From Candidatus Eremiobacteria bacterium (GTDB taxonomy: Bacteria; Vulcanimicrobiota; Vulcanimicrobiia; Vulcanimicrobiales; Vulcanimicrobiaceae), in NCBI GenBank assembly GCA_963737065.1, contig CAVTRC010000001.1, positions 1,024,001 through 1,088,000 of the forward strand: a DNA stretch of 64,000 bases, read 5' to 3'. Every line of letters begins with the position of its first letter. Position 1 is the stretch's first letter. The translations under genes and the position numbers were made by a program. The notes below the pieces were generated by a model. That model saw nothing but the letters and a program-made list of their open reading frames with translations. It ran no database searches and had not been told where the DNA came from. Below are positions 30,669 through 30,786 of the stretch, piece after piece.

Positions 30669-30786
30669 TGCCCCTTCCTGCACCGGCATTACCCGGTGCG
30701 TACGGCGGTCGACGCAGGTCGCGCCCTCTCAGCCCGCATGGATCTGCGCAACGGCGCAAATCCGCTCAAGCTCCCGCAATAAGGTC
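30669..30786 (-). ncRNA. TPP-riboswitch-like aptamer, variant lacking the canonical CCUGAUC/GCG pyrophosphate pocket
   Basis: GCGGGAGC..GGGCTGAGAG..GACCGC and CCGGGTAATGCCGG..AGGAAG directly upstream of thiC. Confidence 0.85.

Follow-up and report, generated by a model that had tools for sequence, protein, structure and literature searches.

The thiC leader of the window

The stretch of DNA analysed here, referred to as the window, comprises 64,000 nucleotides from a Candidatus Eremiobacteria bacterium (assembly GCA_963737065.1, contig CAVTRC010000001.1, positions 1,024,001 to 1,088,000 of the forward strand). Its thiC gene, which encodes the synthase of hydroxymethylpyrimidine phosphate (HMP-P), is preceded on the minus strand by an RNA that closely resembles the aptamer of the thiamin pyrophosphate (TPP) riboswitch, but in which the two strands of the pyrophosphate-binding loop are complementary to each other. 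No riboswitch class is more widespread than that for TPP, which is also a target for drugs and biosensors and owes its selectivity to the pyrophosphate pocket. In what follows the window's genome is G000 and its genus g1, residue numbers 58-80 are those of thiM, and P, J and L denote paired, joining and loop segments. The features of the locus are listed below, beginning with the aptamer.

30777-30680, minus strand: TPP-riboswitch-like aptamer, directly 5′ of thiC
30767..30777, minus strand: P2 5′ strand GCGG (30777-30774), GA linker and P3 5′ strand GCUUG, from the cmscan alignment to RF00059
30737..30766, minus strand: variable P3 extension and L3 loop (0/30 alignment columns invariant)
30727..30732, minus strand: J3-2 CUGAGA, the T-loop that binds the pyrimidine in TPP aptamers (U39-A43 of thiM)
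30711..30726, minus strand: optional P3a hairpin GGGCGCG-ACCU-GCGUC (RNAalifold pairs 103-107 with 114-118)
30705..30710, minus strand: GA and P2 3′ strand CCGC, from cmscan and RNAalifold (6/6 columns invariant in G000-G003)
30700..30704, minus strand: J2-4 CGUAC, its final AC corresponding to the one found before P4 in canonical relatives
30680..30699, minus strand: closed P4/P5 hairpin, consisting of GCACCGG (30699-30693), L5 GUAAUG (30692-30687) and CCGGUGC (30686-30680)
30671..30679, minus strand: AGGAAGGGG, the former P4 3′ strand (AGG) together with the Shine-Dalgarno (SD) sequence, directly abutting the hairpin and 7 nucleotides (nt) 5′ of the start codon
30792..30798, minus strand: CGTCGTA box, 10-13 nt 5′ of P2, invariant in 9/9 variant leaders
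29110..30663, minus strand: thiC, with a GUG start at 30663-30661 (Pfam ThiC_Rad_SAM, 4.6e-194; ThiC-associated, 4.8e-21)
28635..29096, minus strand: haloacid dehalogenase (HAD)-IIIA family hydrolase directly 3′ of thiC (Pfam HAD families; NCBIfam TIGR01662, 107 bits)

A first-pass annotation made from the letters of the window had described this leader without naming the strand, and its letters match the minus strand exactly. It had reported an intact pyrimidine-sensing half with paired P2 and P3, which the RF00059 alignment bears out, and a complementarity of GCAC and GUGC that produces a perfect stem in the absence of the CCU strand, which is what the sequence contains. Reading along the minus strand, CUGAGA (30732-30727) is followed by GGGCGCGACCUGCGUC and then by GACCGC. 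The CUGAGA motif, for which a role in pyrimidine recognition as a T-loop is described in the accessible text of two structural studies (PMC3764141, PMC2018614), is identical in every leader examined, variant and canonical alike. Of the 11 columns in the P2/P3 5′ segment (30767..30777), nine are unchanged across nine leaders, and the P2 and P3 pairs are retained in all nine leaders of the g1 type. The P3 extension with its L3 loop varies in both length and sequence among congeners and is longer in the window's genome than in these, and P3a has a conserved stem and a variable loop.

The departure from the canonical form begins after the AC of J2-4. Compared with GUAC-CU-GAU-CCGG in the nearest canonical leaders (for example G144 and G159), the variant lacks the CU of the P4 5′ strand at this point, and GCACCGG and CCGGUGC form a perfect 7-bp stem that takes in both the former J4-5 (G60 C61 A62) and the former J5-4 (U77 G78 C79), now paired. 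The AC itself is present in all 21 aligned variants, and L5 is the same in all 21 apart from a purine (R) of either kind at its first position. The spacer between AGGAAGGGG and the GUG start is CAUUUCA (7 nt).

Alignment to RF00059 with Infernal, which the first-pass annotation had proposed as a check, places the leader end to end on the model at 25.2 bits (E 0.008 on 501 bases, with relaxed thresholds; the cut-off is 54.3), with the 5′ half and L5 intact and P4 either deleted or mismatched and non-pairing. At the Rfam gathering threshold only tRNA is reported in the window, and no TPP riboswitch. This is the only credible TPP-like element that the RF00059 search finds in the 3.08-Mb genome; a second match (17 bits, E 1.2), lying across the beginning of a Pyridox_ox_2 gene, is noise, and a nadA-like match at 30943-30977, which scores 19.9 bits where the cut-off is 37.5, was treated as a chance similarity.

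Distribution of the variant and its origin

The variant is neither a sequencing error nor a one-off. An RF00059 search of 41 relatives returned one TPP match in nearly every genome, with 22 of the 41 above the cut-off, and the variant form is present in all seven genomes of g1 at scores of 25-41 bits, none of them above the cut-off. These seven share the arrangement CCGUAC-GC[G/A]CCGG-GUAAUG-CCGG[C/U]G[C/U]-AGGAAGGGAG. Two more distinct contigs with the variant, which bring the g1-type leaders to nine, came from a metagenome scan, as did a third contig that is identical to G005. The first-pass annotation had thought a read error unlikely, as the same form in seven genomes and two distinct contigs confirms, and the canonical CCUGAUC that it had allowed for in relatives is found in none of the g1 congeners. 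The tallies of relatives here and below include the unpublished genomes G014, G036, G041, G043, G050, G051, G073, G117, G130, G140, G154 and G161, and no conclusion depends on them. Among sequencing runs, no RNA run is listed as holding the genome, and the DNA runs that are listed contain it at shares of at most 0.08.

Three pattern scans delimit the distribution further. When each GTDB species was represented by one genome and scanned with CUGAGA...GYR-P5-L5-P5′-YRY-AGG, 21 loci were recovered, of which only four join complementary triplets with a missing CCU; these four are the sequences of G002, G004, G005 and G006 (Candidatus Aquilonibacter sp., Vulcanimicrobiota bacterium and uncultured bacterium). 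Among 61 leaders from the family and class, 46 are strictly canonical as defined by the pattern CCY-GNN-P5-L5-P5′-YGN-RGG, and six keep CCUGA...CG when inspected by eye, with length differences of 1 nt; the other nine are the seven of g1 and two from a second genus, g73. Across the phylum (401 genomes of 116 genera) the short-form pattern occurs in 19 genomes, namely in 6/6 of the g1 genomes sampled (G000 included), in 12/18 of those in g73, and in one other, and the reversed pattern, run as a control over the phylum genomes, gave no matches. A short-form match in G139 was rejected since it is not a TPP element.

In g73 none of the 18 genomes exceeds the RF00059 cut-off, the best score being 45.7 bits. 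Sixteen real thiC leaders could be recovered from this genus, and 13 of them have the g1 layout, ...AC-NNN-P5-RUAAUG-P5′-NNN-(A/U)GG, with a 5′ strand that is 2 nt shorter than the canonical one, as in g1. The exceptions are G171 and G172, which have another non-canonical form, and G179, which has kept the canonical pocket. The variant is thus restricted to two genera of soil bacteria, g1 and g73, in the Vulcanimicrobiota/Eremiobacterota. The third form, in G171 and G172 (leaders L155 and L153), reads CAUGAC-UGGU-CCGG-GUAAUG-CCGG-CAU-AGG, and here AUG/CAU may stand in for P4, leaving a 6-nt bulge on the 5′ side. Several g73 leaders (L110, L130, L163, L164, L165, L166, L168) also contain a conserved hairpin of about 45 nt, GGGCUAC...GUAGCCC, in J2-4 just 5′ of the rebuilt P4/P5.

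A family-wide RF00059 search of 151 genomes in 78 genera found a match in 137 and a match above the cut-off in 81. We inspected 20 low-scoring matches (at most 46.2 bits), one of which was spurious. Most of the low-scoring leaders have a canonical pocket and a hairpin inserted in J2-4 between P2 and P4 (for example G022 and G024; leaders L062, L015 and L111-L128), an insertion that pushes these canonical aptamers below the Rfam cut-off; the two g73 genomes among the matches inspected do not follow this pattern. With only 81 of 151 genomes reaching that cut-off, standard annotation misses the variant and many of its canonical relatives with insertions.

The nearest canonical leaders G013 and G017 carry a 3′ tail, GCGUAGGAAGGGAG, that is identical to the variant's, and the tail AGGAAGGGAG is common to both. 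The change is therefore limited to the 5′ strand plus U79C, roughly UGUAAC-CU-GAU to UGUAC-GCG, and the variant appears, from these alignments, to be derived from canonical ancestors. In a tree of ThiC proteins, g1 forms a single clade (100/100), the backbone does not resolve g1 relative to g73, and two g73 genomes cluster with a canonical genus (96/91); the rows G020, G093, G152, G025 and G037 are wrong open reading frames (ORFs) with branch lengths of 10 and are to be ignored. As G179 is canonical and lies inside g73, two independent origins of the variant are possible.

Covariation and selection in the leader

The first-pass annotation had suggested examining whether the closing pairs covary over related thiC leaders, and they do so across the two genera. 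The alignment used for this comprises 21 hairpins (nine g1-type and 12 from g73), 20 of them distinct, and leaves out G173, which has a 1-nt indel, as well as G171, G172 and G179, which are of other types. Over the 20 distinct rows, positions 62 and 77 form CG in nine, GC in six, and AU, GU and UA in one each, with two rows unpaired; positions 61 and 78 form CG in 17 and are unpaired in three; and positions 60 and 79 form GC in seven, GU in two and AU in one. The proposed 7-bp helix has 89.3% of its cells paired against 78.7% in shuffles, none of 500 of which reach the observed value, and sliding the partner strand as a control leaves 31-53% of cells paired. Because the shuffles ignore kinship, more weight attaches to the five pair types at 62/77; in the 46 strictly canonical leaders, as read from their listing, these two positions are never complementary. 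P5 is extended by two pairs in the whole variant clade and by three in g1, and the third pair from the outside is A-U in the window, G-C in five congeneric leaders and the intermediate G.U in two. In G182, a member of g73, the three new pairs are A-U, C-G and U-A.

The aptamer core is conserved well beyond the level of neutral sites. Among G000-G003, 60 of 68 aptamer core columns (88%) are invariant, compared with 85 of 225 four-fold degenerate sites in thiC (38%), which argues that the RNA is under purifying selection and is not decaying. In the same four genomes none of the 30 columns of the L3 loop and two of the six columns of the P3a loop are invariant, and thus the unconstrained positions had time to change and the stems, J3-2, L5, the closed helix and the tail were held. 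The anatomy of the leader, its conservation and the covariation of the new pairs are all directly observed in these alignments, as is the restriction to two genera in the searches above.

Ligand, mechanism and comparison with known systems

We tentatively read this element as a TPP-derived translational riboswitch on thiC that would bind the aminopyrimidine moiety of its ligand and would no longer read the pyrophosphate, a proposal whose chances we place somewhat short of even. The pyrimidine-sensor arm (P2, J3-2 CUGAGA and P3) and the loop L5, which is predicted to dock on P3, have been retained under selection, and the pyrophosphate-sensor arm has been rebuilt through the loss of C58 and U59 and the zipping of J4-5 and J5-4 into Watson-Crick pairs; P4/P5 thereby reads as a plain hairpin capped by L5, and the AGG of the old P4 3′ strand is released into the SD tract. 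The two arms are predicted to close around the aminopyrimidine (hydroxymethylpyrimidine, HMP) moiety of a thiamin-family compound. With the Mg-pyrophosphate left unread, the RNA would respond to a pooled signal of thiamin, thiamin monophosphate (TMP) and TPP, which in cells would be mostly TPP, and the compact bound fold, ending at -17, would hinder access of the 30S subunit to the abutting SD sequence. Ligand binding, the loss of phosphate discrimination and the effect on translation are what we infer here from the structure of the leader.

The fate of the phosphate pocket can be followed residue by residue. In thiM, as far as the accessible parts of the relevant papers describe it, G60, C77 and G78 hold the metal-pyrophosphate, and U59, A80, G60, C77 and G78 are conserved positions (PMC3764141); A61 coordinates Mg and bonds to C77, and C77 and G78 bond to the beta-phosphate (bioRxiv 10.1101/2025.01.21.634073). 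In the nine g1-type leaders C58 and U59 are deleted, A61 is replaced in every case by a C that pairs with G78, and C77 is U in three. In g73, G60 has changed to A, U or C and C77 to G, A or U. The canonical pyrophosphate pocket is thus not maintained across the variant clade, a pattern that fits loss of the Mg-pyrophosphate pocket.

A competing explanation, which we regard as unlikely, is that the RNA is still selective for TPP and that the new pairs form only as long as no ligand is bound; once TPP binds, the loop would open so that G60, G78 and C/U77 could hold Mg-pyrophosphate, or else a hydrated Mg would sit in the G-rich major groove. All nine g1-type leaders retain G60 and G78, and six of the nine retain C77. 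In thiM, U62 and U79, which are two of the three positions that have changed, are flipped out when TPP is bound, and 2-aminopurine at these positions leaves a Kd of 320-375 nM (as given in the available text of PMC2018614); being extrahelical and substitutable, they make residual TPP binding by the variant possible, and the loop might reopen. The A61G change is reported to be tolerated in thiM, with TPP switching not reduced (bioRxiv 10.1101/2025.01.21.634073, accessible part), A61C occurs alone in the otherwise canonical G034 and G035, and C77U occurs alone in the canonical G159. Gene, position and pathway are also the same as in TPP-regulated relatives: ThiL was found in 25/25 relatives and thiamin pyrophosphokinase (TPK) in 0/25, variant and canonical alike, and a pathway difference of ThiL against TPK between the two kinds of genome was accordingly discarded. 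The window's genome also encodes ThiE, ThiD and ThiG, and the ordinary de novo route to thiamin is present in variant and canonical genomes alike. Against continued selectivity for TPP stand the loss of P4 with its conserved U59-A80 pair, the three extra G-C/C-G pairs that would have to be melted, the covariation of 62/77 as a pair, which implies selection for pairing, and the lack of conservation of G60 and C77 in g73 members of the same architecture. In addition, A61U alone is enough to lower the TPP affinity of thiM, to 2200 nM (same preprint, accessible part).

How the leader could control thiC is suggested by its 3′ end. A scan for consensus sigma-70 promoters and terminators found no sites of either kind, and the thiC start position is common to congeners, as GTG, ATG or TTG. 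With no terminator-like site, an SD sequence abutting the hairpin and a shared start codon, control is most likely translational. The first-pass annotation had equated the 3′ strand of P1 with the thiC SD sequence; the SD does abut the hairpin, and it is the P1 helix that we could not demonstrate. Pairing of the 16 nt 5′ of P2 with the tail (RNAduplex, 1000 shuffles) was not significant in 10 of 12 variants, nor in any of the 24 canonical relatives scored (one of 25 failed extraction), so that the test has low power, and the candidates for P1 are short matches of the CCUU/AAGG type only.

The CGTCGTA box 5′ of P2 is probably the -10-like part of a thiC promoter in this phylum, to judge by its recurrence in sequence: it reads (G/T)CGTAG across leaders L004-L009, L089, L090 and L153-L164, and GCGTAnnnT family-wide, where it stands at a similar distance from many aptamers, canonical ones among them. 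A pairing of the box (CGUCGUA) with CCUCGAG of the coding sequence, proposed by RNAalifold, was rejected, its pair probabilities being at most 0.31 and without covariation.

Several of these observations weigh against the riboswitch proposed above, as do the retained G60 and G78, the isolated A61C and C77U changes and the substitutable U62 and U79 already described, and some of them would fit a leader that no longer responds to any ligand. In canonical relatives the AGG of the P4 3′ strand itself begins the SD sequence (AGGGAG or AGGAAGG), and in the variant this AGG has no partner; loss of the P4 5′ strand thus frees the SD, which on its face should derepress thiC and not keep it switchable. 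The low-power pairing test did not establish a P1 or anti-SD helix, and if the box is a promoter, then the transcript starts almost at P2 and very little 5′ leader is left. Three family genomes (G069, G100 and G137; leaders L131-L133) have a thiC without any TPP-like leader, as judged by the lack of CUGAGA and of an RF00059 match; some family lineages have lost the riboswitch altogether, and TPP control of thiC is dispensable there. In g73 the pyrophosphate helix is diverse and drifting in sequence, which is what relaxed constraint would produce. Ten of the 20 distinct rows lack a pair at 60/79, and the congener G002 has an A.C mismatch at 62/77. Single-sequence folds are also no more stable than those of shuffles (z of -0.99 and -0.49).

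On such a view the deletion in P4 would have freed the SD sequence and made thiC constitutive, and the fold would be kept for mRNA stability, for structure at the 5′ end or for SD positioning. The released AGG, the P1 that could not be demonstrated, the leaderless relatives and the diverse pyrophosphate helices of g73 would all be accounted for. We nonetheless think this improbable, to about the same degree as continued TPP selectivity, as selection acts on exactly the parts that contact the ligand and make the tertiary contact, with CUGAGA and L5 invariant and the core far better conserved than neutral sites. The conservation spans more than 20 species in two genera, and where regulation was abandoned the entire aptamer vanished instead of persisting.

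In a further alternative the pyrimidine pocket would have been re-tuned to a precursor, either HMP-P, the product of ThiC, or HMP pyrophosphate (HMP-PP) or HMP, to provide direct product feedback on thiC. Such a sensor is doubtful, the least probable of the possibilities that we considered. It would suit an aptamer in which the pyrimidine pocket is intact and the distal phosphate pocket has been removed, thiC and the HAD gene behind it would be the only genes regulated, and a separate natural class of HMP-PP riboswitch is known to exist (PMC6478431, accessible part). There are, however, no new conserved unpaired nucleotides near J3-2 that could receive a phosphate, and the 5′ halves of variant and canonical leaders are alike; canonical relatives regulate thiC with TPP; and L5 is retained, along with the G that in thiM is placed against the thiazole, which fits a ligand of the size of thiamin.

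The HAD gene had been noted by the first-pass annotation and mentioned in connection with an altered ligand. Its identity is confirmed by Pfam and TIGR01662, but its value as a clue to the ligand is not borne out, since it also adjoins thiC in the genomes G012 and G015, whose riboswitches are canonical. The protein is a HAD-IIIA hydrolase resembling GmhB and histidinol-phosphatase, with a CxH...CxC motif, and lies 3′ of thiC in several genera regardless of riboswitch type; a role in the metabolism of thiamin or HMP phosphates is possible. Past it, and conserved in congeners, are a DUF190 (P-II-like) protein (27408-27863, minus strand) and a 367-aa ORF (27749-28852, minus strand) that matches nothing in Pfam or NCBIfam. 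Encoded on the other strand some 1.5 kb from thiC is a pyruvate dehydrogenase E1 component (32168-34729, plus strand); this enzyme requires TPP, and its proximity is probably coincidental.

A stronger form of the proposal would make the variant a distinct natural riboswitch class for free thiamin or for HMP-P, HMP-PP or HMP, which would have arisen from a TPP riboswitch by a 2-nt deletion and compensatory pairing and have been fixed in two genera, possibly twice independently; this we consider quite unlikely. The leader represents a natural aptamer under purifying selection that appears to have given up the pyrophosphate pocket and to have kept the pyrimidine pocket and the loop-helix dock. 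It offers a ready-made test of how far fold and gene control depend on phosphate recognition, and a candidate scaffold for thiamin or HMP sensors.

Compared with the TPP riboswitch as represented by RF00059, the element retains the P2-J3-2(CUGAGA)-P3 arm, P5 with its RUAAUG loop L5, the position in the leader of thiC and an SD sequence beside the aptamer. It differs in that the 5′ strand of P4 is 2 nt shorter, and the P4 helix CCU(G)/(U)AGG with its conserved U59-A80 pair is absent. The unpaired J4-5 (G60 A61 U62) and J5-4 (C77 G78 N79) are here GCA and UGC, which are fully complementary; across the variants the internal loop is replaced by two to three Watson-Crick pairs, and G60 and C77, which contact the pyrophosphate, vary over the clade.

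Two sets of less drastic changes to the same pocket are available for comparison. Engineered thiM mutants of the pyrophosphate helix (A61U, A61G and A61U/C63U/G78U; bioRxiv 10.1101/2025.01.21.634073), as described in the accessible part of that preprint, indicate that changes at 61/78 alter TPP affinity and that the pyrimidine pocket still works, but these mutants keep P4 and the internal loop, whereas the natural form described here has lost part of P4 and has a paired loop. Natural leaders with GUA in place of GAU in J4-5 (A61U and U62A) are present in Streptomyces, Allokutzneria and Thermoleophilaceae (L064, L065, L067-L070, L072, L077, L082 and L088). Like the variant they depart from the canonical form at A61 and U62, and by analogy they may be another natural form with reduced discrimination; unlike the variant, they keep P4 (CCU/AGG) and J5-4 (CGU), and their strands are not complementary.

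The HMP-PP riboswitch (thiS motif; Atilho et al. 2019, eLife 8:e45210) is described, in the available text, as sensing its ligand through the pyrimidine part and regulating thiamin biosynthesis genes, and it resembles the proposed variant in responding to a compound of the thiamin pathway by way of the pyrimidine. It is otherwise an unrelated small hairpin embedded in a terminator, is usually located before thiS and switches transcription on; what precedes thiC here is a derivative of the TPP aptamer, and no terminator-like site was found.

The closest precedent is a remark by McCown et al. (2017, RNA 23:995, PMC5473149), citing Roth et al. "in prep", that TPP riboswitch variants mutated in P4-P5 have a similar affinity for thiamin, TMP and TPP. 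In those variants, as in the present RNA, the mutations lie in the pyrophosphate-binding core and the rest of the aptamer is kept, and thiamin is read without discrimination of the phosphates, as we propose here. The accessible text of that article gives neither sequences nor architecture, so the likeness to the present form is one of description only. Full-text literature searches, whose coverage leaves out most subscription journals, found no later description of thiamin-binding P4-P5 variants and no paper on riboswitches in Eremiobacterota. The idea of a disabled phosphate pocket is therefore already in print, as a remark without sequences, and the 2-nt deletion in P4 and the zipped loop, with their covariation and their restriction to two genera, are new as far as we have found, providing a concrete and sequence-defined example of P4-P5 variants that have so far only been mentioned in print.

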